Positions 4 through 64,000 of a stretch of DNA of 64,000 nt are shown here, piece by piece. The stretch is from Amoebophrya sp. A120 (Eukaryota > Protista > Dinoflagellata), in NCBI GenBank assembly GCA_905178155.1, contig CAJINV010000005.1, positions 5,002,256-5,066,255 on the forward strand, written 5' to 3'. Position 1 is the first letter of the stretch, and every line of letters begins with the position of its first letter. The notes beneath the pieces were generated by a model. That model did not search any database. It saw only the letters and a list, made by a program, of their open reading frames with translations, and was not told the origin of the DNA. Position numbers and translations under genes: made by a program.

Positions 4-226
4 TATGAGAGTGCACAACTCCCCCTCCTCCTCATTTGTCATGCAAAATCCCAAATCCATATCCAGCTGCTGCCTTGTAGCACTGTTTGCATGACAAATT
101 CTGGAAGCCCAAACAGTACTACACTGGGCACATAGATTTGTCATGCATAGGCTCCATGTGCGCTGGTGTTTGTATTGCTGTTCATGCCATACAAATGGGG
201 GCGAGGGGGAGTTGGGCACTGTCATA
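4..226. mobile_element. Introner 1, family B
   Basis: TIR tatgagagtgcacaactcccc...ggggagttgggcactgtcata; DR (..)tca/cctca, left copy cut by the window edge. Confidence 0.85.
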
Positions 227-3200
227 CCTCACCGGAGCGTCCCACAACGAGATTGGGCGGATCCAGAGTCTGTTCGTCCCGATGGTGGTTATGAAAGTGC
301 ACAACTCCCCCTCCCCCTCATTTGTCATGCAAAATGCCTAAGTTACGCCGGGGTTCTTGGCAATGTTTGCATGACAAGTTCTAGCAGCCCAAATAGCACT
401 ACAATCCTGCCCAAACTTGTCATGCAAAACCGGTAATCTTGCTGATGCTTGTATTGTTGTTCATGCAATACAAATGAGGGGGAGGGGGAGTTGTGCACTT
501 TCATGGTGGTGAAGGGAAAAACGGAAGACGCGGCAAGTGATGGCCTCGCGAAGCAGTTTTTACTGAAGATTGGGGAGAATCTGGCGGATGAGCTGCAGAT
601 CACAGACAGTGCGAAATATCCTCAGACCTTCACCGCTGACTTCGCCGATCCGGTCGCCCAGTCGATCGCGAAGATTGAGTTACAAAACGCTTTACCACCA
701 CCCCCACACGACGCCGAAAAATGCGGCTACGACCCGAACCCCTCGATTCTTCCGGGCAAGTGGTTCCTCTACATGTACAAGCACGGACAGAATAAAGCGG
801 CCAACGGCTGGAATGACATGCGGTTTGGGAAAAACGTTAATGGGTTAAATTCCCTCTGCCCGCACCCGACAAGTGGGAATGCGAAAATGTCGGAAGCGTT
901 ATTCGACGCGTCCTGCTTCACGGAGCTCCTCGCGGTCGGTGGCACCGGCGCGTGGGCGAAAATCTGGCGCAAGGACGGGGCTTGTATCCCCGCGAAAGAC
1001 GCGTTTGGCGAGGGAGAGAAGCGGACGAACGGCTTCTACAGCATTGAGTTTTCCACGGGCTACAAGGGCGACGCGATTGTGAAGAACTTGTACCACGGAC
1101 CCTTGTTCAATGACATCAATACGGGCTCCATGTGGATGTGGCGTTGCAACAGCAAGAACGCCGACGGAAGCAGCTGCGCGCAGTACGACAGTGGCAGTGT
1201 GCTTGGGAGCCAATACGACAACAGCCCGGGTTCCTGGGGCACGCTGTTGACTTCCCTCCCCGGGCGGTATGCCCCGGGGGGCGAAAAGGGGAGAGGGACT
1301 GACGGGTATAGCTGGTCCTGGTACGGAAAGCAAACGACGGTCGCGCAAAGTCTCGATGAACCCACGACGGCCACAACGACCACGACGTTGTTCAAGAAGG
1401 TGAAGAGAGTGCTGGATGGCTGTGTCGCGGCCTATGACTTCGAGGAAGATGCCGCGGCGCATCCGGGAACAGATGCGGCGGTGTACAAGTCGACAGGTAT
1501 TTCCTCCTCCGGCGTCCCGACCGTCGCGCAACCGCTTGTGTGCGCGGGGAACCAGAAGAACAGTAAGGAGACCCTGAAAACGAGGGTGGGCACCGGCGGA
1601 GAGTACAAATCGTTGCTCTTCACCCGGTATTTACAGGAGGGCGGGTACTGCAGCGGCCCGGCCTTTGACATGCCACAGGATGACGAGAGCCGGACCGTGG
1701 TAGTTTGGTTCAAGCCGAAGATCGGGCCCGCGTATCACACCCCGGTTGGGAACGAGGAGTCGGCCACGTCCGGGCCGGTGGCCTACGGGAACGGGATTCC
1801 GGGCCAGGGTTGCAATTCCCACTTCGCGTTGTGGATCAGCGGGTTTGGGGGGAATTTGTACTTTGGACTAAACTGCCAGGACCCGGGTAATGCGAAGGAC
1901 GGGAACACGGGGTTTAACCCGGTGAAAACCAACCTCCCGGAGAGCTGGATCCACGTGGCGTTCAGCTACAATAAGAGCACCAACAAGTTCAAGCACTGGT
2001 ATAATGGCGGTTCTATGAAGGAAAAAACCGCCAGTATGCCCCCGCACACGCGAACGTGGAACTTCGGGAAAAATTGCATCGGTGCGGGCATCCAAACCTG
2101 CTTCACTGACTTGCAACGCGCAGACGGGTCTTTTCTTTCAACCAGCAAGGCCTTTTTCGCCGGCGAGATCGCGTCTTTCCACATCTACGACCGGGAATTG
2201 TCCGAAACCGAAATCAACTGGGTCAAGTCCCACACCGGGCCGGGTGGGGCGCCGGAGTACATCTTCTCGTCCGGGTTGGAAGCAACCAGAGGTCTCGTAT
2301 TGTGAGGAAAAATCCCCCCTCCCCATATCGAAAGCGAAATTTGTGTTGCTGTATTTGAGTACACAAATCGCATTTGTCTTGCTGGAGAGGACTGCGGACC
2401 CATATCAAGCCTGAGTAGAGAGGCTTTGACTTAGGCGCTTAGCATGAAAAGCCTCCGTGATGTTGGCTCAACAGCATGACAAACCGCCTCCATAATGGGG
2501 CGGAAGCTGCTGCCCTTGTCTTCTTGCAACACAAACGTGATTTGTGACCTCAAATCAGCAACACAAATTTTCGAAAACCTACCGCTTCAATATGGGGAGG
2601 GGGGATTTTTCCTTGCGATATCTCGCGGGGTTGGGGAGGTTCCCCATGGAGCAGCTGCTGGGAAATTCCGAGCTGTATGCAATGCAAAAGCATCGTACTA
2701 GTATAAATTGCATTACAAATTGGCCCAGCACTACAAATCGAATTTGTAATGCTGATTTACCTTGAGAAAGAGATTTGTAATGCATAAATGCAATTACTAC
2801 GAGTACGATACTTTTGGACAGGATAAGCTGATCGCTTCGACGATAACGACATCGACGACAGCTGGTACTACAACTTCCGCCACCTCCGGCTACTGCGACT
2901 TCCACGAGAAATGCACGGACGTTAACAGCAAGTTCCACTGCTTTGAACGCGTCCAGCCTATGGGAGACACGAAGCACCCTGGATTTACGAACACCCCGCA
3001 GAACGTTTTGGACTATGAGAGTACTGGTACTATCCCGCCAACCTACGGCTTCGAGATGACGTTTGCAAATTACGGGAAGATGAAAGGAATCTGCGGACAA
3101 TACATCAACGGCGTGGAGAATTATTTGCCCGATCTGAGGGGCAAACTCACGGGGAACAAGTTTGATTGTATGAACATCTGCAGAAACATGGGCGACATCT

Positions 3201-6200
3201 GCCGCGGCACCACCGGCCACAAATACGGGAACGGGAACGACGGGACAGAGTCTGATGGAAAAGTGTTCTGCGAGTTGGAGCTTCAAACCTGCGACGTGCC
3301 GGCGGAAGTACTCGCAAAAGTTCCAGCGGAATTGCACGAATTGAATTGCAATCCGAATGTCCCCGACCGGAAACACGACATCTACCATGTGAGATCCAGT
3401 GGCAACCAGCCGGAGTGCTGGCGGAAGGTAATCTACCAAGCAGGGCCGAATTCCGCTTTGAATTCCTACGAGTTCCCGTTTGAGGATTTCGTGACGAAGA
3501 GCTACAGCACCGACGTAAAGTACTATGCACTGCAAATACGTCTGGGTCTGGAAAGCTGGCCTTTGTAATGCATATCTTGCATTCCTGAAAATAAAATCTG
3601 TGTTGCACGAGCGGCAAAAGAGCAGCTTGCTTTGTCATGCAGAGATGCAATTTGTAATGCGTGCTAGAGATCAGAAAGCGTTCAAAAAACCAGTCATGCT
3701 TGGCTGCCATTGCAATCGTTTCACTCATGCGCGTTTCAGCATCACAGGTTTCCAGACCCAGACGTTTTTGCAGTTGATAAGCACACGCGTGACACCATTC
3801 CGAAATCCAACCCGTCCTGGGCGTGGAAGGACTCGCTGGGGTTCAGCGAAGAGTATAAGAAAATCGCGAAAACCGCACCTATATGCTCTGCAAAAGTATC
3901 GTACTCGTACTAATTGCAATCATGCATGGCAAATCTTGTTTCTTAGCCAAATCAGCATTACAAAGAACTCCATTTTTCCTTCTGAAAAAACTTGTATTGC
4001 AATTTACACTACGTACGATGCTTTTGCAATGCATACACTAAATCCTCCTTCGATTGCACCCGGGACGCGATCTTGGTGTACAGCCAGAACACCGATTTCG
4101 CCAACAGTAAGGTGACGCAAAAGGCCTGTCTGCAGCTCTGCACGGAGTTTGGAAAGGGGCTGTGTGCGGGAGCGGTCCACTTTTATGATGAGACAGCAGA
4201 AAAATCAAAGTGTTTCCTTATAAAACAGTCTAAATCCGATGTTCTTCTCGGCGCGACGCTCCATTCCGTCGGGAAAAGCGCTTTGGGTTCCTACTGCGAG
4301 GACAACGGGACACATCGGTGCTTCTTCCGGGATGTGAACACCGATTTTGCGCTGGATGCGCCCAACGGGATTAGCAACATCTTTCTCCCGATCTTGAACA
4401 GTGAAAGTACTACGGAAGAGCAGTTTTTGACAAAATTGCTCCCAGTAGCGACTGATGCGACTTTACTACAACAATCCTACCCGTCGAACCACGTGGAGTA
4501 CTTCTACCAGCACTTGGGTCACGGGAAATGCGTGTATCAAATGCAAAAATGTCTGGGTCTGGAAAGTTGCAAGATTTGTGATGCATCTCGCGGACCACAC
4601 TCATGGTCTGTAATGCAGACAGAAGCATCACAGACTTTTTGAGACCTTCCTCATGCCTCTTCCGCATGAGAAATTCGCCTTTTGCCTAGCGAGAATTGGG
4701 TAACTGTTGGCGTTCATGCAGCACAGATTTTCTCGCGATCCAGATTTCGCATGACAGGCTTCATTCTTCCAGACCCAGACATATTTGCAATGCATAGCGT
4801 GCACACGCAGAACAAACGGGAAAACTTGTCCAAACTAACGCGAACTTTCGTCGCCGGGAAAGACTCGGTAGATGGGAAAATCACGAAGGAATTAGCGGAG
4901 GATATGACCCGCTCAGACGTTACAATCTCAAACGTTACATCAATAGAATATGGGAATCTGTGATGCAAGAGTGCATGATCTAGCCAACTCTCATACGATT
5001 GCGCATGACAAGTTCCGGAGCCCCAAACCCACCTGAAATCCGGCAAGATTTGTATTGCGAAAAGCCCAATTCTCTCTGCGTTCCTCATGCTCTTCATGCA
5101 AATAGAATTTCCGGATTCTATTGTAACGTTTGAGATTGTAACGTTTGAGCAGGCCATAGAAGAGTGCTTCTATGAACTGCAAAAGTATCGTATTCGTATA
5201 AATGCATGACAAACCTCCTCAGCATGAGAAATGAAATTTGTAATGCGAATCTACCTTAAGAAAAAGATTTGTAATGCGTGACTGCAATACGAGTACGATA
5301 CTTTTGCACAGGATAGCTTCAACTTCTGCGACATTCTCGCGCTGAGGAACAACCTATGCATTGCAAAAGTATCGCAGTCTGGAAAAGTGGAACTTGTGTT
5401 GCATGTCTTGCATTCCTGAAAAATCTGTATTGCACAGCCACGAAGAAAGGCGCCGCTTTTTCGTCCTGCAAAAACGCAGTTTGTCATGCGTGCTACGCAT
5501 CAGACGGCGTCAAGTATACTTGTCATGCTTGGCTGCGCTTGGGAGCGCCAGCAGTCTTTTATCCATACTGTAGCATCACAGGTTTCCAGACATCCAGGGA
5601 TATTTGCATTTGATACAACCCGTTCAAACACACGACTGACGCCACTCTTCACGAGCTCGTCGGGAAGGGGAGTTTATGGAATGCAAAAATGTCTGGGTCT
5701 GGAAGAGTGCAAACTTGTGATGCTGCGTTTGGATTCCAAAAAAATGTGTATTGCATGAGCAGCAATAAAGGGAAGGCAATTTTTGCTATGCGGAGAGGGC
5801 ATTTGTCATGCGGACTAGGCATCAAGAAGCCCTCACAAAATCTGTGATGCTGGGGCATGCATCACTGACGTCATGGCTCACGCAAAACGTGCATGACAAG
5901 CTTCAGAATCTTCCAGACCCAGACATTTTTGCAATGCATACAGTTACATCGGCCACGAGCTGTGCAAGGGCGTGGAATATCAAATGCAAAAATGTCTGGG
6001 TCTGGAAGGACAAGGATGCGAACTTGTGATGCATACTTGGAGGACACAAAAATCTGTCATGCTTGACAGCAAAGGGAGCTCCTTTTCCTGTCGCCGAAAG
6101 AAGGCGTTTGTCATGCCGATTAAGCATTGGAAAGCCGTCTCAAAATAACCTGTGATGCTAGGGCTTGCATGGCACACCTTCTGTGTTACGCAGACACAGC

Positions 6201-9200
6201 ATCACAAACTTCAGCAATCTTCCAGACCCAGACACTTTTGCAATGTATATGGAATTTACAGGGACTTCTTGTAGTTTGATTGTCGATATGGATTGTAAAA
6301 ATATCTGGGTCTGGAAGGTTGGAACTTGTAATGCTAGCTTTCCATACCTAGACAATCTGTATTGCATAACCAACAAAAGTCGCAGCCTCTTTTGTCATGC
6401 AAAAACGCAGTTTGATTGTCATGCGGATTGCCTATGAGAAAGCGTTTTGGGAAGTTGTCATGCTGGGCTGCATTCGGAAGCGTTTTCATCATGGACATAT
6501 TAGCATCACAAGTTTCCAGACCCAGACATTTTTGCATTTGATTGTGGACCGCATGGATTACAAGACGATGCTCAACTACTACTTCAAGCAGGACGACTAT
6601 GGAGGCGTCAGGATTGAAATCGGCAAAGTTGAAATAATTTCTCACGCGTAAATTGCAAGGCATGAAGTGCCTCTCTTGCAGGGGCGGCAGGTGAGGCCGA
6701 CCGTCAGCCTGTTTGGGATCTGCGGCAGAGCTGCTCAAGTAGCATGACAAAAGACGCCTTCTGTCATTAAACAGCATGACAAACTGGATTTAGACGGTGT
6801 CGATATTTGTCATGCGCCGCTTGAAAATTTGGCTTCCAACTGGTATCGATTTTCTGCAGTGCAAGTTACTTCAACTTTGTCGATTGCAAATCTGACACTC
6901 CCATAACGACATTGCGACTTCCACCGTCACAATCACCTCCACGGTACGGCCGAACTACCCACCAGATTTCTACTACGGGGTCTACAGCTTCGGGGACGAT
7001 TTCCAGTACAAGATGGAGTTCGGGTACGATTCGATCGAAGCGCCGAATCAGGCGGACAACGCGCATTTAGCCTCCTGTACCGGAGATGGTTGTAAACAAT
7101 CCTGTTTCGCCAAGCAGTACAAGTCTTCATTCGAGCGCGGCTACACTTCAAAGCATCCGGATTACGTATCAATTGCAAAAATGTCTGGGTCTGGAAGATT
7201 GCAAGTGTGTCATGCTTGTCTGGCATGAGTCGAGAATCTGTGTTGCATAGACACCGAAAGGCCCTCTTACCTGTCATGCAAAAACGCAGGTTGCCATGCG
7301 GAATACGTAAGACATAGGAGCCAAAAAATTTGTCATGCGTAGCTGCGTATAATTGCAGTGCTTCTACCATTCACTTTTAGCATCACAAGTTTCCAGACCC
7401 AGACATATTTGCAATCCATATTGCGGCATGATCCACCACACGTATAACCCGAATGGTATGAAATGCAAAAGCATCGTACTAGTACAAATCGCATTACAAA
7501 TGTGCTCAGCATTAGAAATGGAATTTGTAATGCGTATTTGAATTGATAAAAAAATTTGTGTTGCATGACTGCAATTACTACGAGTACGATGCTTTTGCAC
7601 AGGATAAATGGTGGCAGTCTGCAAGATTATGTGGACATGAACTCGGACCACCGTGTATCCTGAGCAAAAACGTCCCCACCCCAGAGTTGTAATGCAAATC
7701 TGCATGCTCAGAATGTTTCTCATGCGGAGTTCCATGAGAAGCAATTTCTAGTCGTGTTCTGCAATTTGCCATGCTCGAATGTGCATGATATACTAGATCT
7801 GTTACGCTGCTGAGCTAGCTGAAACAGCACTACGCTACGACTCCAAATTTGTCATGCAAAACAGCCAAAACTTGTGGATTTGTCTAGCCGGTTCCCCATC
7901 TTGACTATGGGGTGGGGACGCTTTTACATAGGATACCGCCACTACGACTGGAGTTGGCGGCGCCACCCGAAGGTGGCGGCGCTGTACGACAAGGAGGACG
8001 GCGACAATACCAACGCGAATAATTATGACGCGAATCCATCGTCGGAAGATGATAAGGGGTGCTTACTACCCGCAGGTCGGTTCGACGGGGTCGCGGGGCA
8101 CAAGAACGCACTGCTCGCGGCGGACAACGTGCACTGCCCGGGGGAGAACAAGGTTTCCATGGTGCAACTCGCGAAGGGCTGCACGGTGGATCTTTGCCCC
8201 ACCTCCCCCACCCCGACGGACACGAGTAAATCACATTGCTTCCGCGTCGGCCCCGGGCCGGGCGTGTTTAAGGCGAGTGACGGGCATTTCGATTCGGACA
8301 CCATGTACGAAGCGCATGTGTATTGTCACATTAACAATCCGGAAGGGATATCAAATGCAAAAATGTCTGGGTCTGGAAGATTCCTACATTTGTCATGCGT
8401 GTCTGACATGACTCAATAATCTGTGATGCATGGGCACGAAGCGGTCCTCTTTTCTGTCATGCAAGCGCGCAGTTTGCCATGCGGAACACGCAACACGTAG
8501 GAGCCCAAAAAATTTGTCATGCTTGGCTCCGTATTGCAGTGGAACTCTCGTTCACTTGTAGCATCACAAGTTTCCAGACCCAGACATTTTTACATTTGAT
8601 AAGGGACGATGAGTTCTTTTGCGGACAATGCGGACGGTTCTGGGGCGAAGTGCTCCCTCCCAATTGGGCGGTACGGGAACAGCTGGGTCAGCACGTGCCA
8701 CCCAAACAAAATCCTGACGGGAGACATCCACGTTGGATCAGATCCTCTACACGGACCGTGTCCGGTGAATGATAAAGTTTCCCAAATTATCATGTGTAAA
8801 AACGTCCCCGCACCAGAGTCAAGATGGTAAATCTGCTACACAAATCAGCCAGCTCTGGCTGTTTCGCATGACAAGTTTGTCCTTGTAGCGGAATCCTGTT
8901 TAGGTAGTTCAGCAGCATCACAGACCTAGCTTATCATGCTGGTTATAGCATCACAAATCCCAAGACACGACTAGAAAACGCCTCTCATGGGGCTCAGCAT
9001 GAGAAACTTTTTTGGCATGCAGATTTGCATGACAACTCTGGGGTGGGGGCGTTTTTGCTGAGGATACAGATCGTGGTGAAAGCCGGCTGTGCCGCGCACG
9101 TGTTCCAGCACTGCGACGGGATCTCGGGAAATTCTATCGCGAGGAGAAATCCCCTCTCCCCATATTGACAAGGTACGTTTTCGAAAATTTGTGTTGCTGA

Positions 9201-57200: not shown

Positions 57201-60200
57201 CCCCTTCGCGAACCCGGCGCTTTCAGCCTATTTGTCCGGGGAGAAAACGGCGAAGCGGGATATGTTTTTGACAAAACTAACCCAGACTTTGAAAACCGAA
57301 ATCGTTTCCTACAAACAGTCTCTCGATCCAGCAACAGCGGGCACTGTGGCGGAAAAAGCTCTAGCGGAATCGAATCTCGATCTCGCTTTGTCGCCCCCGA
57401 CGGGCACAGCAGAGCAGGTTGCAGGCTCGTCGTTGACAATTCCACCGACTGCGAAGGTTGCGAAGACTTCTGCTTTCGCTGAAACCAAGTTGTCGATCGA
57501 TTTAGGAACGAACGACCCGACGAAGCGGCCGGATAAAGACACGGTGAGGTCTATGGTACAGAAGGCGGCGGCAGAGTCGCTGCAGGCGAAATTCCCGGAT
57601 ATCACGATCACGCCGGAGATGGTCATGGTTCGATTCCCGCCCAAGGCGGAGTCCGATACTGCGGTTACTTCGACGGAAGAGTTTTCGGTGTCCTTAGCGC
57701 TGCCGAACGTGAACACCATCCCGGCGGCAGAGCAGACGAAATTGCTGGATAGTCTGTCCTCTACATCTTCCGAAGCGTCTTCCTTAACATCTGCCATGGC
57801 GAGTACGGTGCAATCTTTAGGTGTGGAGAACGTCGCGACCGAGATCAAAGAACTTCCCCCGCAGCCGGACGGCACGCCGACGAAACCGCAGTTAACTGGG
57901 ACGGACGGCGGTTCTGTGGACTTATCCCCAACTGAGCCGCCGCCCGGCGCTCCGAGCTTGAACTTCATCGAAGTCCCAGCTTCCATCGTCACCGCGACGA
58001 AAACGGGGATTTCTGATACCCAGATGCAGGGCTTATTGAAGAAAGCGTTGGAGAAAACCGCACTGAAAGAATTGTTCGAGAAGATCGGCGCCGTCCCTTC
58101 TGGCCCGAATAAGACCGAAACAGTGACCGATGTTACTACTGGACAAACGAAAGAAGTGCAGAAACTCGACGCGAGTAAGATCTTCGGAATTGTCATGGAG
58201 CCTTCTACACCAGTAGCTGCCGGTTCCACCGCGACGAAGAGGAATTTCAAAATGACCATTCAGACCCAGGGCTTGACTGCAACACAACTTGGGTTAGTGA
58301 TGGCGGCTTTAGCCGACGCGGCGGACGATTCTGTCTCTACAAAAGCGGATGAATTCGCTTCTGCGATTAAGGAGGAAGTAGTGAAGGAATTGCAGGCGAA
58401 TCCGATTTCTTCTGTCGGCGATCCGGTGAGCGAGATCACAGCCGGGAAGATGGAAACAGCAAATAAAAGACCACAACTTTCCTCTCAAGTCGAAACGAAG
58501 ATCAGGCTGGAGATCAAGAACCAAATTTCCGGCGCACCGCTCAAAGAGGACATCGTGAAGAAGATGCCGATTCAGCTGGCTTTCGCGAAAGCGCTGGAAA
58601 AGGTAACCGGGACGAAGTTGCTGCCAGAACAGGTCGCAGTTCTAGATGTGGCGGACGCGGTGACGATCGGCGCCGACGGCTCAGTGGATATCAACGTTGG
58701 CGTTGCTTCTTCTTCTCCTTCAATTCTGTCCGCGTTGACCGAGGGGGATGGGAACAAGGTGTTCGCGAACGTGTTGCAGGAGATGATTGGCACCGCGATT
58801 ACCGAAGCGGCGAGTAACAACGAGCTGGACCCGTCTGTACCATTATTAGTAACAACCGACACTTCTGCTGGCGTTGTCGCCCCGACGGTGAATACCCAGT
58901 ATGTCGCGACGCAGGTCGGTTTGCCGGCGGTTGCGGCGGCGGCGAAGAATTCTGGGGAGTTAGCGCCGACAATGAGAACAGCCGCGGCGTCGACCGCGGA
59001 GGCGGTTGTCGGTACTACTGGCCCATTACAGGTCGACAGATCCAACGTCGTTGTCGGGTACACGCCGGGAGACGGTTCTGACGCTAGTGGTTTTTCTGCT
59101 ATGGTCTCTGTCCCGGTGAAGTCGATTGTTTCTACCTCAAAGGCGCCGGTGGATCCGCTTGCGGCAACAGCTGCAGCAGCAGCTCCTGCAACACCACCTG
59201 CGAGTGGAGGTACAACAACACCGCCAACAACCACTCCCAGCACTGGCGCGACGACACCAACCGTCGGCGAAACGGCAGTGACTTCCGTCGCTCAAACCGC
59301 GGGATCACTCCTAGACGCACTGAAATCTGCGATGGCCCAGGACTCTCCTGATTTCGCCGCGCCACTTGCGCAGAAGTTGGAAGTCCTTGGCGTGAAGATG
59401 CAGGAGAACGTCGCGGCGGACACACCACCGTTACCAGTCGAGCAGCCGCCAGTGGAGTCCGTTCCGGCCGTTGCAGCTTCTACGGAGAAATCGCAACTGA
59501 CTTATCTCGAAACCTCCATGTCTTTCGTCGACTACATTGAGGAGCCGCCAAAGACAATCACGAAACCGGACGGGACGGTGGAGCAAGTCGATGTTTCGCC
59601 TTCCACAAGCAATAAAAACTTCCTGCAGAAAGAGATCAAGCAGAAGCTTTCCTCAACGACTGAACTGACGAAACTTGCGAAGGAAGCGATTGCGGAAGTT
59701 TTGGTCGAGTCAAGAACAGACCCGGTCACTGGGGAGAAGATCGAAACCGCGGCGCCATTGTTGATTGAAACTTCTGATGGCAGTTTTGAAGTCAAGCCGT
59801 CGGACATAGCGGTGGTTATCCGCGAAGTCCCCGCGACGGTTACGAGGACATTCTCCAACGGCACAACAGTTGAAGTGCAAGTCATGAAGAAGGAGATGTC
59901 ACTGTCTGTGCAGGTGCGGGAAACGGAAGACTCGTCTGAAGCACAAAGACAACTCCTCGCGTTGTTTTCGAAATTGAACCCGAAGGCAAACTCGTTTCAG
60001 GATGCTGTGCAAACCAGGGTGATGGAACTCGCAGTGGAGAAGACGGTTGAGGAGAAGTTGGTGGATACTTCATTACCTCCAGCAGAACAGGCGAAGATCA
60101 AGCAGCAATTCACACAAGAATCGTTAGCGACAATCCAAGCGCCGGAGAACAGAGACAGCTTCCAAACCGCGGCGAAAGTCGAGAAGGAAATTGCATCTGC

Positions 60201-63200
60201 AGCAAGTACCGTCGGTGGGCAAGCGGCGTTTGAGACACCGGGGCTCTTGCCTGCGACGACGGAAAAGGCGAAGGAGGCGACGACGAACGCCTTGAAACGG
60301 GCGGTGAAGGAGACACTGAAGGAAATCGCGGGTCTGGAATTCGTATGCATTGCAAAAGTATCGTACTCGTGCTGATTGCAATCGTGCATGACAAACTGCG
60401 GTCTTAAGCGAAATCAGCATGACAAGCCCCATTTTTCCTTTTGAAAAAATTTGTATTGCAATTTCCACTACTCCTACTGCGATACTTTTGCAATGCATAA
60501 TCCGAACTGGAGCACGTTTCTGTCAAACTCGACCCGGGCACTGCGGAGATCGGCGCACCGTCGTTCTCCTTCTCCATCCCCTCGCAGGGCAACGTCGCGA
60601 CAGCGCTCTTCTCTGAAGGAAGTACGAAAACCGCTAGTTTTACTGATTTGCTAAAGAAAAAGATCAGCAAGCAGTACTTCCAGGCAGCTTCTGATGAAAC
60701 CTCAGATTCCGCCGTTGAGGGGCTGCCGAAGGTGGATGTTTCAAATGTTGACACGACCCTACCCATCGAGGAGCAGGAAGCGTCTTTGATCACGAAACCG
60801 GTGCAGATGACCGGCACGGCGAAACAATCGAGATTTACAGAATCGACTCTGTCCATCGGCCTGGCTTCTCCCGAGCAGGGTGGGCTATTGCCGAAATCGG
60901 AGGACATGCTGAGATCTCTAATCGTGTCCGCGACGATTGATAGCGTGAAAGCACAGGCGAACTTCGACTTAACGCCATCCGATGTGACAGTAGTTTTCGC
61001 CGGGGATGTTGCCGCGATTCTGGAAATGGTTTCCAAGAACGCAACTTTAGCGACCAATTTGGACGCTACCGTGATTGTGGAAGTCGCTGACTCCCCGACG
61101 CCGGATCCGACGACCAAAACGGTCGAAAATTCCGGTGCGAAGGTGCAGCAGATTGTGGATCAATTGACGACACAAGTCACCGGCGAGGACGGAAAGCCGA
61201 AAACGGTTCCTTCAACCGCTTTTGTCACGAAGATCCAGACGGAATTAGAGTCCTTTGGGTTAAAAGTTCCGAACCCACCAGACCCGGACCCGAAGAAGGG
61301 AATGGAGCAATCCGCACCAGCCACAACCGAAGATTCTTGGGTGCCACCGGTGCCGGAGAAACCTCTGTCGTTAGGTGGGGAGAATCCAAACATCGAGCCC
61401 ACGCCTTTGATTGAAACGAACATCAACGTGAATCTCGGTTCGTCCTCCAAGGGTTTGACAGACAACACCGTGCAGGAAATGATAAGAAACGCAGTTGCGG
61501 AATCTTTGGTCGCAGAATCGACCGTCGGAGAACAAGCCGGACAGCCGGCGCAACCAGTGGTTCCCGGATTCCTCGATTTAGTCCTGGAATCCGCTGGGTT
61601 TTCAAAGCAGGAACAACAAGCGATGACAAAGGTTGAGAAAGCAAAAAATGCGGAGAAGTTCATGGAAAGTCAAATTTCCGTGTTTTTCACCGACAAAAAA
61701 CCGAAAGACAAAGCTGGTGGCGAGCAGCGCGCTTGCTCCGTTGTGATCTCCGCGAAGTTGGCGAATTCCACTGTCGTGCTGGATTTGCTGCAGGCTTTAT
61801 CCAAGGAATCTTCCTCCACTAACGATGAGAAGTTCGAAGAAACGTTCACGGCCGCGCTGAAGCAAACCGCATTGCAGACACATTCTATTCCACCTTCCGA
61901 CATTGTCACCGACGTCACCCAGAAATCAGCGAAACCGGTGGAGCAGATTTCCACGAACATCCAGTTCGACTTCGATATTGTCCCCAAAGACCCGACAACC
62001 ACGCCAGTGAACATGATTTCCGACAATACTATCGCCGAAGCGAAGGTTTCGGTCGAGGAAATGAACATGATGTTGCAGGAGTCTGTCGCGTTTGCGTTGA
62101 ACGGTACAAGGGGGATGTCGCTGCAGGCTTCCCAAGTCGCGGTCAACATTTTGGATGACCTCAGTTCCATCATGACGACCGACCCAGCTGATCCGAGTAA
62201 GAAACTCCTACCGTTGGTGCAGAAGTTGAACAAGGGGCAGCCAAATGAATCGTTGAACAGCTTGCTTTCCAACTTGAATTTCACGATCTCCATCCCAGTG
62301 GCGTCTGACACGAACGAGATGATGCATTTGGCGGACGAAACGGCTGGGAACAAGATGTTTTTGAAAGCGGTCCAGAATTCGATGGCGTCGCAGATTCAGA
62401 CATCGAATTTTATCCCAGAAGTGGTAAAACAGGATTTGAAAGTCGAGACGAAAGAGTTGAAAACCACGAGTTCTGTCCCATTAGCCCAGTCGTTCACCGA
62501 AGCGTTTATGGAGATTGACTCGCCGATTTCCGATGAGGAATTGATCGCGACGATCAAGTATCAAATGTAAAAATGTCTGGGTCTGGAAGAATGCACGTTT
62601 GTCATGCTTGTCTGGCATGACTCTTAAATCTGTCATGCGCGTTACGCTAGAGCTCCGTTTTTCTGTGATGCAGAAGCGCAGTTTGTCATGCAGAATAGGC
62701 AACACCTAGGAGCTCAGAAACTTGTCATGCTGAGCCAGCATTTGTAGCCTCATCATGAGACGCCACCCAGCATCACAAGTTTCCAGACCCAGACACTTTT
62801 GCACTTGATATCAAAGGCGCTGCGGCGGATGCGGTGGACACTTTGGTTCCGAACATGCCGAAGGGGGTGGAGCCGAAGGACATCACGGTGTTGATTTTGA
62901 AAACCGAGGGAAACAAGAGGGAGATTGTCGTGCAGACACCAGTGCAGAAAACGTTACCAATTCAAACGGTGGAAGTGGTTGAAGAGGTGACGGTGACGAA
63001 TCCTGATGGCAGTACCACAGTCACACAAGTGACGAAACAAGTAACTTCGGTGAATGTCACTGCGGTTGCGACTGCGGCAGCCGAGGCGGAGTACAAGGGT
63101 TCTGCGAACGAGGTTGCGAACAAAATGTCCGCGGCTAGCTTCATGGTCCCGTTTTCGACGCGTATGGAGGTGAACTTAGATTCTATGTTCACTTTAGACG

Positions 63201-64000
63201 CTCTTCCGGAGGAAACGCAACCACCGGCAGTCACCGAACCCGCGAAAACCGAACAGCCGGAGGAATTGCCAATAGTGACGGTTGAGGGCGAGATGTCTGT
63301 GGAAATCAAACCCGCGGATCCGAGCAAAACCTTGACTGACAACCAGCTCACCGATCTGGTGAAGGCGGCGGTGGCGAGCACATTAGGTGCGACGACGTTT
63401 GATCCGAAAACCGGGAAGAACACCAAGCCGATGTTCCAGTTGTCGGGCGGGTCGGTTATCAGGTCGGATCAGATCGCGGTGACGAAGTTGGACGGTGGGT
63501 TGCTAGATCCGGACAAGCACACATTCAAAATCGCGGTCCACGGAAACCAGTTGTCCGCCGCGGAGGTTTCGGAAGCGCTGGCGCTGTTGACGAAGCCGCA
63601 GGAAGAGGAGAAACCAGCTGCGCCCGCTGCAGGTCCAGGTGCACCAACAACCGGTATCAAATGTAAAAATGTCTGGGTCTGGAAGAGTTGGAACTTGTGA
63701 TGCAAACTCTGGAACAGACAAAAATTTGTGTTGCATGAGCGCCAAAAGCTGCCCACTTCTTGGCACGCATGTGGCAAGTTTCTCATGCGGGACAGGCATC
63801 ATGAGGCGTGCTCAAAACCTGTGATGCTTTTGCCTGCATCAGACACCATTTGCGTGATCCGAAATATGCATGACAAATCTACAAATCTTCCAGACCCAGA
63901 CACTTTTGCATTTGATAACCGGCACCGGCACTGCAACTGCAGCCCCGCCGAGAAAGGACGTTGTGACAGAGAGGCAGCTGAACTTCCAATCGTTAGTCCA
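227..64000 (+). CDS. Partial giant multi-exon gene (>~16,000 aa in window), putative surface/adhesin/mucin-like protein, open at both ends
   Basis: All long + ORFs join in frame after removing each TIR element plus one 5-bp DR. Examples: ...VPMVV|KGKTED; TRGL|AGLGRFPMEQLLGNSEL|IASTITT; LAEE|CF|NFCDILALRNN|PFKH. No exonic stop codon was found. Confidence 0.85.
290..505. mobile_element. Introner 2, family B
   Basis: TIR tatgaaagtgcacaactcccc; right end reads atg; DR gtggt. Confidence 0.9.
506..2297 (+). CDS. Exon: Trp/Cys/Gly-rich domain copy 1, Thr linker, LamG-like domain
   Basis: ORF 449..2305 trimmed to the flanking elements. Confidence 0.85.
1418..2230 (+). other. LamG / concanavalin A-like (pentraxin-like) domain
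   Basis: Motifs AAYDFEE, RTVVVWFKP, WIHVAFSY...KHWYNG, IGA and FAGEIASFHIYDRELSETEI follow the Laminin_G_3 pattern. Confidence 0.8.
2298..2620. mobile_element. Introner 3, family D
   Basis: TIR tattgtgaggaaaaatcccccctccccatat; DR tctcg. Confidence 0.9.
2676..2825. mobile_element. Introner 4, family E
   Basis: TIR tatgcaatgcaaaagcatcgtact; DR agctg. Confidence 0.9.
2826..3523 (+). CDS. Exon: Thr linker plus Cys-rich (PAN/Apple-like) module
   Basis: ORF 2762..3568; CMNICRNMGDICRG...FCEL. Confidence 0.8.
3524..3779. mobile_element. Introner 5, family A
   Basis: TIR tat..tgcaaa..gtctgggtctggaa; DR agtac/agcac. Confidence 0.9.
3882..4035. mobile_element. Introner 6, family E
   Basis: E-type TIR; DR accta/cacta. 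Confidence 0.85.
4036..4534 (+). CDS. Exon: PAN/Apple-like module
   Basis: ORF 3992..4642; ACLQLCTEFGKGLCAGAVHF...KCFL. Confidence 0.8.
4535..4796. mobile_element. Introner 7, family A
   Basis: TIR tatcaaatgcaaaaatgtctgggtctggaa; DR gcgtg. Confidence 0.9.
4903..5158. mobile_element. Introner 8, family G (single copy in window)
   Basis: TIR tatgacccgctcagacgttacaatctcaaacgttaca; DR gagga/gaaga. Confidence 0.85.
5159..5170 (+). CDS. Micro-exon (12 nt including both DRs; 7 nt net)
   Basis: gaagagtgcttc between two elements; required for the in-frame LAEECFNFC. Confidence 0.75.
5171..5315. mobile_element. Introner 9, family E
   Basis: E-type TIR; DR gcttc. Confidence 0.9.
5355..5615. mobile_element. 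Introner 10, family A with E-like left end
   Basis: Left end tatgcattgcaaaagtatcgcagtctggaa; right end ttccagacatccagggatatttgcatttgata; DR caacc. Confidence 0.9.
5675..5940. mobile_element. Introner 11, family A
   Basis: A-type TIR; DR gagtt/cagtt. Confidence 0.9.
5978..6249. mobile_element. Introner 12, family A
   Basis: A-type TIR; DR tggaa. Confidence 0.9.
6287..6543. mobile_element. Introner 13, family A
   Basis: A-type TIR, right end reads att; DR gtcga/gtgga. Confidence 0.9.
6598..6905. mobile_element. Introner 14, family F
   Basis: TIR tatggaggcgtcaggattgaaatcggcaaagttgaa; DR acgac. Confidence 0.9.
7167..7420. mobile_element. Introner 15, family A
   Basis: A-type TIR; DR ttacg/ttgcg. 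Confidence 0.9.
7457..7606. mobile_element. Introner 16, family E
   Basis: E-type TIR; DR aatgg. Confidence 0.9.
7656..7935. mobile_element. Introner 17, family C
   Basis: TIR tatcctgagcaaaaacgtccccacccc; DR ccgtg/ccgcc. Confidence 0.9.
7936..8348 (+). CDS. Exon with beta/gamma-crystallin-like motif
   Basis: ORF 7874..8419; ENKVSMVQLAKGCTVDLC. Confidence 0.75.
8349..8601. mobile_element. Introner 18, family A
   Basis: A-type TIR; DR aggga. Confidence 0.9.
8788..9066. mobile_element. Introner 19, family C
   Basis: C-type TIR; DR caaat/cagat. Confidence 0.9.
9135..9478. mobile_element. Introner 20, family D
   Basis: D-type TIR; DR aattc. Confidence 0.9.
9591..9870. mobile_element. Introner 21, family A
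   Basis: Degenerate left TIR (starts tac); DR ggcct. Confidence 0.85.
9871..10276 (+). CDS. Exon: PAN/Apple-like module
   Basis: ORF 9899..10426; SDCGRACLTLGKDCLGY...PCIL. Confidence 0.75.
10277..10557. mobile_element. Introner 22, family C
   Basis: C-type TIR; DR aactg. Confidence 0.9.
10634..10919. mobile_element. Introner 23, family C
   Basis: C-type TIR; DR agtga. Confidence 0.9.
10978..11241. mobile_element. Introner 24, family A
   Basis: A-type TIR; DR actga/actgt. Confidence 0.9.
11242..13769 (+). CDS. Exon: two PAN/Apple-like modules plus a degenerate super-repeat segment
   Basis: Frame is open from 11242 into ORF 11492..13777; FCYGTCNKFSSCAGISF and RCLYTCELK...CKAVVYRSSDETCVL. 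Confidence 0.85.
13770..14051. mobile_element. Introner 25, family C
   Basis: C-type TIR; DR gaaag. Confidence 0.9.
14411..14672. mobile_element. Introner 26, family A
   Basis: A-type TIR; DR ggcgg/ggtgg. Confidence 0.9.
14716..15022. mobile_element. Introner 27, family F
   Basis: F-type TIR; DR cctct. Confidence 0.9.
15023..15727 (+). CDS. Exon including the start of Trp/Cys/Gly-rich domain copy 2
   Basis: ORF 15031..15789; PGKWELYMYKHG...LNSLCPHPTSGNAKM. Confidence 0.85.
15728..15981. mobile_element. Introner 28, family A
   Basis: A-type TIR; DR acact/gcact. Confidence 0.9.
16026..16288. mobile_element. Introner 29, family A
   Basis: A-type TIR; DR tgggt. Confidence 0.9.
16606..16860. 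mobile_element. Introner 30, family A
   Basis: A-type TIR with variant right end; DR ctccg. Confidence 0.9.
16861..18400 (+). CDS. Exon, Ser/Thr/Ala-rich repeat region
   Basis: ORF 16868..18454 trimmed. Confidence 0.85.
18401..18707. mobile_element. Introner 31, family F (inverted relative to 14 and 27)
   Basis: F-type TIR; DR tcacc. Confidence 0.9.
18708..19279 (+). CDS. Exon
   Basis: ORF 18725..19324; in-frame join LPIT|PASVVIR. Confidence 0.8.
19280..19541. mobile_element. Introner 32, family A
   Basis: A-type TIR; DR cggaa/cagag. Confidence 0.9.
19632..19910. mobile_element. Introner 33, family C
   Basis: C-type TIR; DR cgaga/tgaga. Confidence 0.9.
19911..20742 (+). CDS. Exon with mucin-like Thr-rich tract
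   Basis: ORF 19861..20754; TTATPTTTT...TTSTTSTSTTTTSSTTTTT. Confidence 0.85.
20743..21010. mobile_element. Introner 34, family A
   Basis: A-type TIR; DR aaacg. Confidence 0.9.
21193..21340. mobile_element. Introner 35, family E
   Basis: E-type TIR; DR tcgct. Confidence 0.9.
21387..21644. mobile_element. Introner 36, family A (variant TIR at both ends)
   Basis: TIR tatcaaaagtaaaaatccctggatgtctgg; DR aagga. Confidence 0.9.
21718..22039. mobile_element. Introner 37, family D
   Basis: D-type TIR; DR atact/attct. Confidence 0.9.
22228..22506. mobile_element. Introner 38, family A
   Basis: Degenerate A-type TIR; DR ggagc. Confidence 0.9.
22507..23102 (+). CDS. Exon with Thr-rich linker
   Basis: ORF 22520..23158 trimmed. 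Confidence 0.8.
23103..23420. mobile_element. Introner 39, family C
   Basis: C-type TIR, right end reads aga; DR ggaca. Confidence 0.9.
23421..24503 (+). CDS. Exon: Cys-rich, PAN/Apple-like modules
   Basis: ORF 23551..24558; GECFNLCDAMGADCQGISM...DCFLK. Confidence 0.85.
24504..24756. mobile_element. Introner 40, family A
   Basis: A-type TIR; DR tggca/gggca. Confidence 0.9.
25134..25386. mobile_element. Introner 41, family A
   Basis: A-type TIR; DR agggg. Confidence 0.9.
25387..27103 (+). CDS. Exon: three PAN/Apple-like modules
   Basis: ORF 25339..27114; CKELCEKDVVCTGYQY, ECAEVCDLLGADTCSGFD, WCMLLCNRMSKCTRI. Confidence 0.85.
27104..27252. mobile_element. Introner 42, family E (degenerate)
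   Basis: E-type TIR; DR eroded (gattc/gcctt), but removing 5 nt still restores the frame. Confidence 0.8.
27253..28566 (+). CDS. Exon, super-repeat region
   Basis: ORF 27302..28615; LPMRLESLGV landmark. Confidence 0.85.
28567..28879. mobile_element. Introner 43, family D
   Basis: D-type TIR; DR tccga. Confidence 0.9.
28880..29394 (+). CDS. Exon, super-repeat region
   Basis: ORF 28874..29548 trimmed. Confidence 0.8.
29395..29547. mobile_element. Introner 44, family H
   Basis: TIR tatgcaatacaaatttcccgtacatgtacaaa; DR ggtac (the only element readable as GT-AG). Confidence 0.85.
29548..31352 (+). CDS. Exon, super-repeat region
   Basis: ORF 29563..31395 trimmed. Confidence 0.85.
31353..31632. 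mobile_element. Introner 45, family C
   Basis: C-type TIR; DR aaggg. Confidence 0.9.
31633..34078 (+). CDS. Exon, super-repeat region
   Basis: ORF 31591..34086 trimmed. Confidence 0.85.
34079..34357. mobile_element. Introner 46, family C
   Basis: C-type TIR; DR tcacc. Confidence 0.9.
34427..34635. mobile_element. Introner 47, family I
   Basis: TIR tatcacaagaaaaaactgtttcactgt; DR tcgct. Confidence 0.9.
34636..35159 (+). CDS. Exon, super-repeat region
   Basis: ORF 34612..35199 trimmed. Confidence 0.8.
35160..35315. mobile_element. Introner 48, family H
   Basis: H-type TIR; DR acgat. Confidence 0.9.
35316..37260 (+). CDS. Exon, super-repeat region
   Basis: ORF 35196..37322 trimmed; SSWLP landmark. 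Confidence 0.85.
37261..37512. mobile_element. Introner 49, family A
   Basis: A-type TIR; DR gaaag. Confidence 0.9.
37560..37768. mobile_element. Introner 50, family I
   Basis: TIR tatgcaagaaaaaaactgtgt; DR cttgt. Confidence 0.9.
37905..38113. mobile_element. Introner 51, family I
   Basis: I-type TIR; DR aggct. Confidence 0.9.
38114..39699 (+). CDS. Exon, super-repeat region
   Basis: ORF 38059..39837 trimmed. Confidence 0.85.
39700..39945. mobile_element. Introner 52, family A (inverted sibling of 13)
   Basis: A-type TIR; DR ctacc. Confidence 0.9.
39946..41841 (+). CDS. Exon, super-repeat region
   Basis: ORF 40008..41888, open upstream to the element. Confidence 0.85.
41842..41991. mobile_element. 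Introner 53, family H (inverted sibling of 48)
   Basis: H-type TIR; DR cacgg. Confidence 0.9.
42046..42260. mobile_element. Introner 54, family B
   Basis: B-type TIR; DR ctcgt. Confidence 0.9.
42261..45765 (+). CDS. Exon, super-repeat region
   Basis: ORF 42174..45770 trimmed. Confidence 0.85.
45766..45994. mobile_element. Introner 55, family B
   Basis: B-type TIR; DR ttccg/ctccg. Confidence 0.9.
45995..47586 (+). CDS. Exon, super-repeat region
   Basis: ORF 45963..47624 trimmed. Confidence 0.85.
47587..47838. mobile_element. Introner 56, family A
   Basis: A-type TIR; DR ggatc. Confidence 0.9.
48066..48284. mobile_element. Introner 57, family B
   Basis: B-type TIR (left end starts tac); DR tccaa. 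Confidence 0.9.
48285..49959 (+). CDS. Exon, super-repeat region
   Basis: ORF 48160..50028 trimmed. Confidence 0.85.
49960..50221. mobile_element. Introner 58, family A
   Basis: A-type TIR; DR tcgtc. Confidence 0.9.
50222..51639 (+). CDS. Exon, super-repeat region
   Basis: ORF 50236..51684 trimmed. Confidence 0.85.
51640..51904. mobile_element. Introner 59, family A
   Basis: A-type TIR; DR aagag. Confidence 0.9.
51905..56533 (+). CDS. Largest exon (4.6 kb), about one full super-repeat
   Basis: ORF 51754..56544 trimmed. Confidence 0.85.
56534..56687. mobile_element. Introner 60, family E
   Basis: E-type TIR; DR accgc/accac. Confidence 0.85.
56688..60343 (+). CDS. Exon, super-repeat region
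   Basis: ORF 56707..60375 trimmed. Confidence 0.85.
60344..60499. mobile_element. Introner 61, family E
   Basis: E-type TIR; DR attcg/atccg. Confidence 0.9.
60500..62558 (+). CDS. Exon, super-repeat region
   Basis: Open frame from the element into ORF 60648..62570. Confidence 0.85.
62559..62810. mobile_element. Introner 62, family A
   Basis: A-type TIR; DR tcaag/tcaaa. Confidence 0.9.
62811..63654 (+). CDS. Exon, super-repeat region
   Basis: ORF 62834..63700 trimmed. Confidence 0.8.
63655..63917. mobile_element. Introner 63, family A
   Basis: A-type TIR; DR accgg. Confidence 0.9.

Follow-up and report, generated by a model that had tools for sequence, protein, structure and literature searches.

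Introner elements of Amoebophrya sp. A120 have been described as carrying inverted repeats (IRs) made of TAT, seven nucleotides and three or more A, with direct repeats (DRs) of 3-5 nt at the intron boundaries (PMC7789003, section 11), and a supplement legend of the same paper shows a DR of 5 bp. According to the introner sections of that study (Farhat et al., 2021; PMC7789003), neither U1 nor a transposase was detected in A120 and the mechanism of removal was left open; tens of introns per A120 gene are mentioned in a passage of another paper (PMC12130899). The nonconventional introns of Euglena, in the account given in part of PMC12501133, need the motif N3CDG...CH'GN5-6|R, and a distinct machinery has been proposed for them; they form circles, as cited in PMC12621601, which points away from the spliceosome. 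Here we describe a stretch of 64,000 nt of A120 DNA (assembly GCA_905178155.1, contig CAJINV010000005.1, positions 5,002,256 to 5,066,255; the whole stretch is called the window below), in which one gene is interrupted by 63 short TAT...ATA elements flanked by 5-bp DRs. The phenomenon is already published for this strain and is not a new system. What the locus adds is that the elements sit in both orientations, that the cut, as read from public gene models, probably falls at a fixed place inside the DR, that the element ends are constrained whereas the DRs drift, and that there is neither a GT-AG rule nor a strand bias. Neither the cut rule nor the use of both orientations was found stated for Amoebophrya in the literature searched, which included few subscription papers. 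Orientation-blindness, a fixed cut inside the DR and a constraint on arm positions 1-3 and 11-13 do not appear in the accessible text and legends of PMC7789003; the offset may already be apparent from its figures (3, S19-S25).

The window was scanned for terminal inverted repeats (TIRs) with flanking DRs, and the 63 resulting calls were checked against the reading frames; two were dropped and two added, leaving a final set of 63. The hits at 49662-49950 and 55528-55657 lie inside an open exon and were discarded as false, and the elements at 27104-27252 and 29395-29547, missed by the ungapped scan, were recovered in two segments without an open frame. The elements are 145-344 bp long and sum to 15,462 bp, or to 15,777 bp (24.7% of the window) with one DR each. 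The first-pass annotation, made from the letters alone, had listed 63 elements of this length range with a 5-bp DR, the first starting at position 4 and the last ending at 63917, and had put them at about 15.8 kb or 25% of the window; scan and frames bear this out. Its description of the elements as TAT...ATA and similar to miniature inverted-repeat transposable elements (MITEs) also holds: 58 of the 63 are exactly TAT...ATA, and as in MITEs the elements are short, have TIRs and a target site duplication (TSD), lack coding capacity (the longest stop-free stretch is 93 codons) and occur in many copies. Two start with TAC and three end with ATG, ATT or AGA; TA is found at all 63 starts and at 60 of the ends. 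A DR length of 5 bp stands out, with a mean identity of 0.92 over the 62 checkable junctions as opposed to 0.25-0.29 at lengths 2-4 and 6-8 (0.29 at length 6), and 42/62 junctions have perfect DRs. With a strict detector the window gave 53 matches, compared to 0-3 for each of 10 shuffled versions. The published A120 IR motif fits 50/63 left and 50/63 right arms, the arms outside it belonging mostly to groups with CAC or TCA at positions 11-13. The elements carry 265 copies of a subterminal motif, GCA(T/A)NACA or its complement, with at least one in each of the 63, compared to six copies in the exons; judging from the sequence, this motif is likely a transposase binding site. A search of Rfam gave no match.

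When each element is removed together with 5 nt at the 62 checkable junctions, 48,220 nt remain that form a single + strand frame of 16,072 codons without a stop, extending from 234 to 63998 and open at both window ends; the first-pass annotation had likewise reported a restored frame at 62 junctions and exons free of stops. Removal of 0, 1, 3, 4, 6 or 7 extra nucleotides instead leaves ~280-307 stops. By frame alone +2, +5 and +8 are equivalent; it is the DR length, together with public gene models, that fixes the removal at +5. Retention of an element introduces an in-frame stop in 62/62 checkable cases. Single-exon protein searches led to four proteins in all, every one from Amoebophrya sp. 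A120, which match the spliced frame at 99.9-100% identity with no gaps and three residue differences. All four matches are on the + strand: P0004 at 1670..5164 (aa 406-1093, junctions 3-7), P0001 (GSA120T00010155001) at 6553..18316 (aa 1148-3506, junctions 14-30, no gaps), P0003 (GSA120T00010154001) at 18299..26235 (aa 3501-5145, junctions 31-41, 100%) and P0002 at 26200..33297 (aa 5134-7194, junctions 42-45). The public models thus make the same removal at 38/62 junctions, 37 of them in frame and junction 10 in the shifted tail of P0004, and according to section 25 of PMC7789003 they were derived from transcript alignments. The elements are almost certainly A120 introners, as had been guessed from the letters. 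Cryptic GT-AG sites were considered: in-frame, stop-free pairs within 30 nt exist at 53/62 junctions, which is a loose upper bound, and they were rejected at the 38 covered junctions, where they would alter the protein while the models match the +5 product. The claim that the elements are the only introns stands for aa 406-1093 and 1148-7194, where the models are free of gaps; elsewhere a short in-frame, stop-free intron could be present.

Where exactly does the cut fall? Perfect DRs leave the junction ambiguous over six registers. At mismatched DRs, in contrast, the public proteins reveal which copy is kept. The left base is retained at DR position 1 in e40 (24504..24756, group G5, DR TGGCA/GGGCA), at position 2 in e6 (3882..4035, G4, ACCTA/CACTA) and e42 (27104..27252, G4, GATTC/GCCTT), and at position 3 in e5 (3524..3779, G5, AGTAC/AGCAC), e15 (7167..7420, G5, TTACG/TTGCG), e26 (14411..14672, G5, GGCGG/GGTGG), e37 (21718..22039, G3, ATACT/ATTCT) and again e42. 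At position 5 it is the right base that is kept, in e17 (7656..7935, G17, CCGTG/CCGCC), e24 (10978..11241, G5, ACTGA/ACTGT) and e42, which by itself brackets the cut within one junction. All 11 informative bases, from nine mismatched-DR junctions, place the cut between DR bases 3 and 5. Read from the public transcript-based models, the intron accordingly has one of two forms, N-TAT...ATA-NNNN or NN-TAT...ATA-NNN. With a register drawn at random for each junction, some single register would suit all nine by luck with a probability of 0.017. Moving every cut 1-2 nt into the left arm, or 2 nt or more into the right arm, introduces stops at 2-15 junctions. As the offsets add up to 5 (1+4 or 2+3), the loss equals precisely one duplication and the coding sequence that preceded the insertion is restored. 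The earlier formula of an element plus one DR thus gave the correct length but misplaced the junction, which lies inside the DR and not at the element edge. Because the cases in which left base 3 is kept cover both orientations of one group (e5 and e15 versus e26), the offset follows transcription and not the element. GT/GC-AG ends are found at 0 and 1 of 62 junctions in the two supported registers and at 4/62 in any register, and the first exon base is a purine in 33 or 32 of 63 cases. At DR position 4, both mismatches in the window are synonymous, and seven elsewhere are non-synonymous at residues that are not callable as conserved. The codon phase of insertion (17/17/28) does not deviate significantly by a hand calculation.

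Since the two DR copies are identical at insertion, their mismatches can be used as a clock. They amount to 12/203 at codon positions 1-2 and 13/107 at position 3 (difference p 0.08), as expected for one free intronic and one coding copy. This drift of ~6% per site means that DR identity is not needed. The terminal TAT and ATA deviate at 5/378 bases, fewer than the 12/203 of the DRs (Fisher p 0.003) and than the 9/91 counted at A/T sites only (p 0.0002). Within the arms, positions 1-3 and 11-13 deviate from the group consensus at 0.8-2.4%, the other positions up to 30 at 8-39%. From these patterns we infer that selection has probably acted after insertion on two blocks ten bases apart in both arms. 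The arms are paired in the minimum free energy (MFE) fold of 57/63 elements, and 15 sampled elements gave z values of -1.2 to -13.5. Arm position 4 shows no asymmetry between the 5' and 3' ends (G/C 37 vs 35 over 198 elements), and there is no excess of exon-exon pairing across the junction at positions 1-5. A +5G bias of the 5' site was tried and rejected: 17 vs 7 in the window (p 0.06), it is reversed at other loci (20 vs 28). Of the five changed bases in terminal triplets (at 505 in e2, 6543 in e13, 23419 in e39, 9593 in e21 and 48068 in e57), four match the exon base that would make the DR longer; this observation is post hoc, involves few cases and could be the product of repair or of conversion of one junction copy by the other.

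The window elements fall into eight groups and one singleton, listed here, without strand, as far as they are not given above. G1 comprises e1 (4..226, its left DR cut off by the window edge), e2 (290..505, DR GTGGT, ends ATG), e54 (42046..42260, CTCGT), e55 (45766..45994, TTCCG/CTCCG) and e57 (48066..48284, TCCAA, starts TAC); G3 also includes e3 (2298..2620, TCTCG), e20 (9135..9478, AATTC) and e43 (28567..28879, TCCGA). Further members of G4 are e4 (2676..2825, AGCTG), e9 (5171..5315, GCTTC), e16 (7457..7606, AATGG), e35 (21193..21340, TCGCT), e60 (56534..56687, ACCGC/ACCAC) and e61 (60344..60499, ATTCG/ATCCG). To G14 belong e14 (6598..6905, ACGAC), e27 (14716..15022, CCTCT) and e31 (18401..18707, TCACC), to G44 e44 (29395..29547, GGTAC), e48 (35160..35315, ACGAT) and e53 (41842..41991, CACGG), and to G47 e47 (34427..34635, TCGCT), e50 (37560..37768, CTTGT) and e51 (37905..38113, AGGCT). 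In addition to e17, G17 contains e19 (8788..9066, CAAAT/CAGAT), e22 (10277..10557, AACTG), e23 (10634..10919, AGTGA), e25 (13770..14051, GAAAG), e33 (19632..19910, CGAGA/TGAGA), e39 (23103..23420, GGACA, ends AGA), e45 (31353..31632, AAGGG) and e46 (34079..34357, TCACC). The largest group, G5, is completed by e7 (4535..4796, GCGTG), e10 (5355..5615, CAACC), e11 (5675..5940, GAGTT/CAGTT), e12 (5978..6249, TGGAA), e13 (6287..6543, GTCGA/GTGGA, ends ATT), e18 (8349..8601, AGGGA), e21 (9591..9870, GGCCT, starts TAC), e28 (15728..15981, ACACT/GCACT), e29 (16026..16288, TGGGT), e30 (16606..16860, CTCCG), e32 (19280..19541, CGGAA/CAGAG), e34 (20743..21010, AAACG), e36 (21387..21644, AAGGA), e38 (22228..22506, GGAGC), e41 (25134..25386, AGGGG), e49 (37261..37512, GAAAG), e52 (39700..39945, CTACC), e56 (47587..47838, GGATC), e58 (49960..50221, TCGTC), e59 (51640..51904, AAGAG), e62 (62559..62810, TCAAG/TCAAA) and e63 (63655..63917, ACCGG). 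The singleton is e8 (4903..5158, GAGGA/GAAGA). Element density is 17, 11 and 11 per 8 kb over positions 1-24000, compared to 3-4 per 8 kb over 40000-64000, the repeat-rich 3' part.

Both orientations are present in 7/8 window groups, at 14 vs 13 in the largest, and among pairs of at least 85% identity 11/16 are opposite, including e56/e62 at 96%, e49/e56 at 95% and e29/e34 at 92%. A scan of a metagenome collection for the TIR motif, which covered 15/64 of its parts, gave 152 stretches and 149 loci, 80 of the loci with full flanks; their elements come from another assembly. These loci hold 408 TIR pairs with the same 5-bp DR peak, 265 of them with perfect DRs, and provide BLASTN relatives of 74-96% identity for 62/63 window elements. 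Oriented by the host frame, 136 of the elements at these loci could be used; the 95 assigned to a group split 56 vs 39, and both orientations occur in 7/7 groups seen. Both orientations are clearly tolerated, and there may be a mild bias. Seven enlarged elements of 457-1,031 bp have normal ends, perfect 5-bp DRs, unrelated cargo and no long open reading frame (ORF): L070:7017-7988, L021:632-1465, L045:571-1051, L046:3862-4492, L063:5994-7024, L071:10896-11391 and L023:6307-6763. The first of these lies in the gene for Rpb1: across this element, enlarged by its cargo to 972 bp, plus 5 nt, one exon ends at yeast residue 1068 and the next resumes at 1069. Insertions of this kind are tolerated even in an essential gene, and the interior can differ about fourfold in length. 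An ordinary stretch starting with GT is found 63 nt after this element. A different inverted-repeat element of 834 bp at L019:10539-11372, GC-rich, with 25/25 matching arms and no 5-bp DR, apparently represents another transposon type. Near elements of the other assembly, L013:584-2083 encodes a C-5 cytosine DNA methylase domain (PF00145, E 2e-37).

Taken as a whole, the reading that we favour, at a probability of about 50%, is that introners inserted in either orientation are removed from the pre-mRNA by cuts measured from a hairpin, likely by a nuclease and a ligase. Its first component, removal at the RNA level with cuts measured from the hairpin base, is highly probable; its second, a non-spliceosomal nuclease and ligase as the remover, we adopt tentatively. 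In this scheme a DDE integrase-like transposase (Ginger/IS3EU/GingerRoot-like) would make cuts staggered by 5 nt and insert the element either way round. The arms are predicted to pair in the transcript, whichever strand is read. An enzyme would then cut the RNA at the two places suggested by the models, 1-2 nt before TAT and 4-3 nt after ATA, and the exons would be ligated. The signal would probably consist of the terminal TAT/ATA pairs and positions 11-13, about one helical turn up, and not of the duplication or GT-AG. Several points weigh against this. The cut was read from nine junctions via gene models whose boundaries were set by BLAT/est2genome and Gmove; the boundary of e17 could be drawn to a GT, those of e24 and e42 cannot. 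DR position 4 is uninformative, so that the 1/4 and 2/3 offsets are not separated, and part of the DR mismatches could date from insertion and inflate the clock. G.U and A.C mismatches in the arms are equally frequent (158 vs 158 in 198 elements; 33 vs 31 within the first 14 pairs, again without a bias towards an RNA stem), which gives no indication that an RNA duplex, as opposed to a DNA duplex, has been selected for. In the RNA runs X9 and X10 there is no junction-spanning read; instead of exon reads they contain pieces that resemble elements and have loose ends, and for that reason they are uninformative on expression. No nuclease, ligase or transposase was found, transposase families being absent from the 132 long ORFs scanned (of 165) at the neighbouring loci. 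Finally, the 1-nt offset produces an intron start of N-UAU(G/C), like a spliceosomal 5' site, and A120 possesses U2, U4, U5 and U6, as stated in PMC7789003.

The last point leads to the strongest rival, which would make the same cut: a modified U2 spliceosome without U1, in which the hairpin joins the intron ends, N-UAU(G/C) serves as the start and an A of the 3' ATA as the branch point near a sequence-free 3' site. It is possible, although we doubt it. Nearly all spliceosomal proteins are reported for A120 in the relevant parts of PMC7789003, along with U2, U4, U5 and U6 and no detected U1; the 1-nt offset fits the junctions and gives invariant +2U, +3A and +4U; canonical-looking introns coexist with the elements, as in the GT-starting stretch near the enlarged Rpb1 element; and the MITE-derived introns of Fritillaria have been reported, via a review, to be spliceosomal. 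Four observations speak against such a spliceosome: the base at the intron start and the last 3-4 are unconstrained, arm position 4 lacks any 5'/3' asymmetry, positions 4-8, the stretch of a branch site expected to pair with U2, are among the least constrained, and splicing is blind to orientation. We consider a nuclease and ligase somewhat more likely than this spliceosome, given that the bases at both intron ends are unconstrained, that orientation makes no difference and that Euglena provides a tested parallel in its paired trinucleotides with fixed spacers.

In ciliates, internal eliminated sequences (IESs) are excised from the DNA. A comparable programmed excision, in which a domesticated transposase clears the elements from the DNA of the transcribing stage, would explain why the constrained blocks (positions 1-3 and 11-13 of both arms) resemble transposase contacts, and the absence of both a G.U bias and an orientation bias fits a DNA duplex. 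It is improbable nonetheless. Runs X1 and X5 contain the DNA of the window with the elements in place, although the window may derive from X5 itself, which could represent a stage other than the transcribing one; X1 behaves as DNA, and unitigs lead from an element through a whole exon into the next element with no other letters (e.g. 11216-13803). Moreover, a reversed integration or an annealing of whole DRs predicts that all bases come from the left or all from the right copy, not left bases at positions 1-3 and a right base at 5, and the offset tracks the direction of transcription. The first-pass annotation had proposed clean excision from coding sequence: the transcript-based models support this for RNA, whereas for DNA the two DNA-like runs, which keep the elements, speak against it. 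In the summed contig depth of X5, element bins lie far above exon-only bins (~45), a figure that is not a copy number. As to X9 and X10, hundreds of RNA reads match internal element parts (16774-16836, 18649-18680, 7850-7906 and 10803-10836) at 90-99% and then diverge into other sequence; related element families are present in these libraries, from other loci or another strain.

Reverse transcriptases can skip template and ribosomes can hop. That a reverse transcriptase jumps the hairpin as an artefact, or that RNA polymerase or the ribosome hops between the DR copies in vivo, is the least probable reading, even though a strong hairpin with short direct repeats is the usual setting for a jump and a 5-nt repeat always holds one whole in-frame codon, since skipping by a reverse transcriptase should leave right-copy bases, whereas the informative bases at positions 1-3 come from the left copy in 8/8 cases, skipping by a polymerase should leave left-copy bases, whereas those at position 5 come from the right copy in 3/3, the DRs decay near the neutral rate (only 2/5 bases match in e42), a non-wobble mismatch lies inside the in-frame codon at eight junctions, and all 62 retained elements bring stops, yet the frame of 16,072 codons is intact.

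Returning to the nuclease-ligase reading, one can go further and propose that A120 runs a second, orientation-blind and non-spliceosomal mRNA splicing system which shares the end code of the transposase, consisting of the TAT/ATA pairs and a block one helical turn further in, with offsets that sum to its 5-bp stagger, possibly by means of a domesticated transposase-derived protein and independently of that of Euglena. This extended version is unlikely. If it were true, any insertion of this transposon family would be erased from the message, even a 1 kb cargo in RNA polymerase II.

The mobiliser is likely an integrase of the Ginger/IS3EU type, for which one candidate family is on record. According to an entry in supplement file 8 of PMC12130899 (2025), A120 introner family 38 is a Ginger element of ~808 bp with a 5-bp TSD, TA/TA termini and homology to an integrase-like ORF. 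The TSD and termini are as in the window elements, which encode nothing; the two were compared by description only. The first-pass annotation had called the mobilising enzyme unresolved, which is largely true, apart from this listed family. In the relevant part of PMC10045372, IS3EU and GingerRoot have TA..TA termini and a 6-bp TSD, and Ginger2 a TSD of 4-5 bp. The termini of IS3EU/GingerRoot are shared by the window elements, whose duplication is 5 bp instead of 6, a length compatible with Ginger2. No autonomous element sharing the TIRs was found in the 149 loci, a search confined to element neighbourhoods in which none of the 132 ORFs scanned matched a transposase family. A TIR pair 6.2 kb apart was considered as an autonomous partner and is likely due to chance. 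Viral contigs gave no match.

The product of the host gene exceeds 16,072 aa and is likely located on the surface or secreted; four or more of the public A120 models apparently represent pieces of this one giant protein of over 16,000 residues. Its layout begins with an N-terminal domain at 572..1339 (+ strand; aa 40-295), of which a second copy with 49% identity lies at aa 2756-3013 (window 15277-16577), and with a Laminin G-like/ConA lectin domain (PF13385, E 4e-7) at 1658..2218 (+); Cys-rich modules follow, and then a Cys-poor, Ser/Thr-rich region at 27350..61016 (+) with long internal repeats, 20-38% identical between copies. PF13385 alone was above the cut-off in a Pfam search with 20/63 exons. 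There is no strong hydrophobic segment inside the window, and single-exon searches of the longer proteins found no relative outside A120. Between e8 and e9 lies a micro-exon (5159..5170, +) of 12 nt with both DR copies, or 7 nt net. Model P0004 omits its two unique bases, which shifts the frame of the model; this loss is probably an aligner artefact.

The locus sharpens the question of how tens of thousands of introns without GT-AG are removed in an organism in which no U1 was detected, and it supplies a testable code: N1-2-TAT...ATA-N4-3 in either orientation, with constraint at positions 1-3 and 11-13 and dispensable DR identity. Junctions whose DR copies differ offer a way to read a cut site that aligners leave ambiguous. 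If removal is non-spliceosomal, this would be a second case after the euglenozoans, and a compact, sequence-independent 'traceless intron'.

Compared with described systems, the window elements differ in no kind from the A120 introners, with which they share the organism (by protein identity), the TAT IRs, the boundary DRs, the non-canonical sites and the repeated families. U2-type spliceosomal introns have GT/GC...AG and strand-specific signals, and neither is found here. The MITE-derived introns of Fritillaria borealis are, in the partial account available, species-specific new introns with TIRs and TSDs, as here; they retain a preference for AG-AC/AG-AT, and the spliceosome reportedly removes them, whereas the window elements show no dinucleotide preference. 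The nonconventional introns of Euglena, as described in parts of PMC12501133 and PMC11282704, have paired trinucleotides at fixed, short distances from the two cuts, flanking direct repeats, a suspected transposon origin and no GT-AG. A fixed-spacer architecture like theirs fits 11/11 informative bases, from nine junctions only. The code itself is different, CDG/CH'G with spacers of 3 and 5-6 in Euglena and TAT/ATA with spacers of 1-2 and 4-3 here, and the Euglena preference for a purine at the first exon base is not seen. The likeness between the two systems, which occur in unrelated lineages, is likely convergent.

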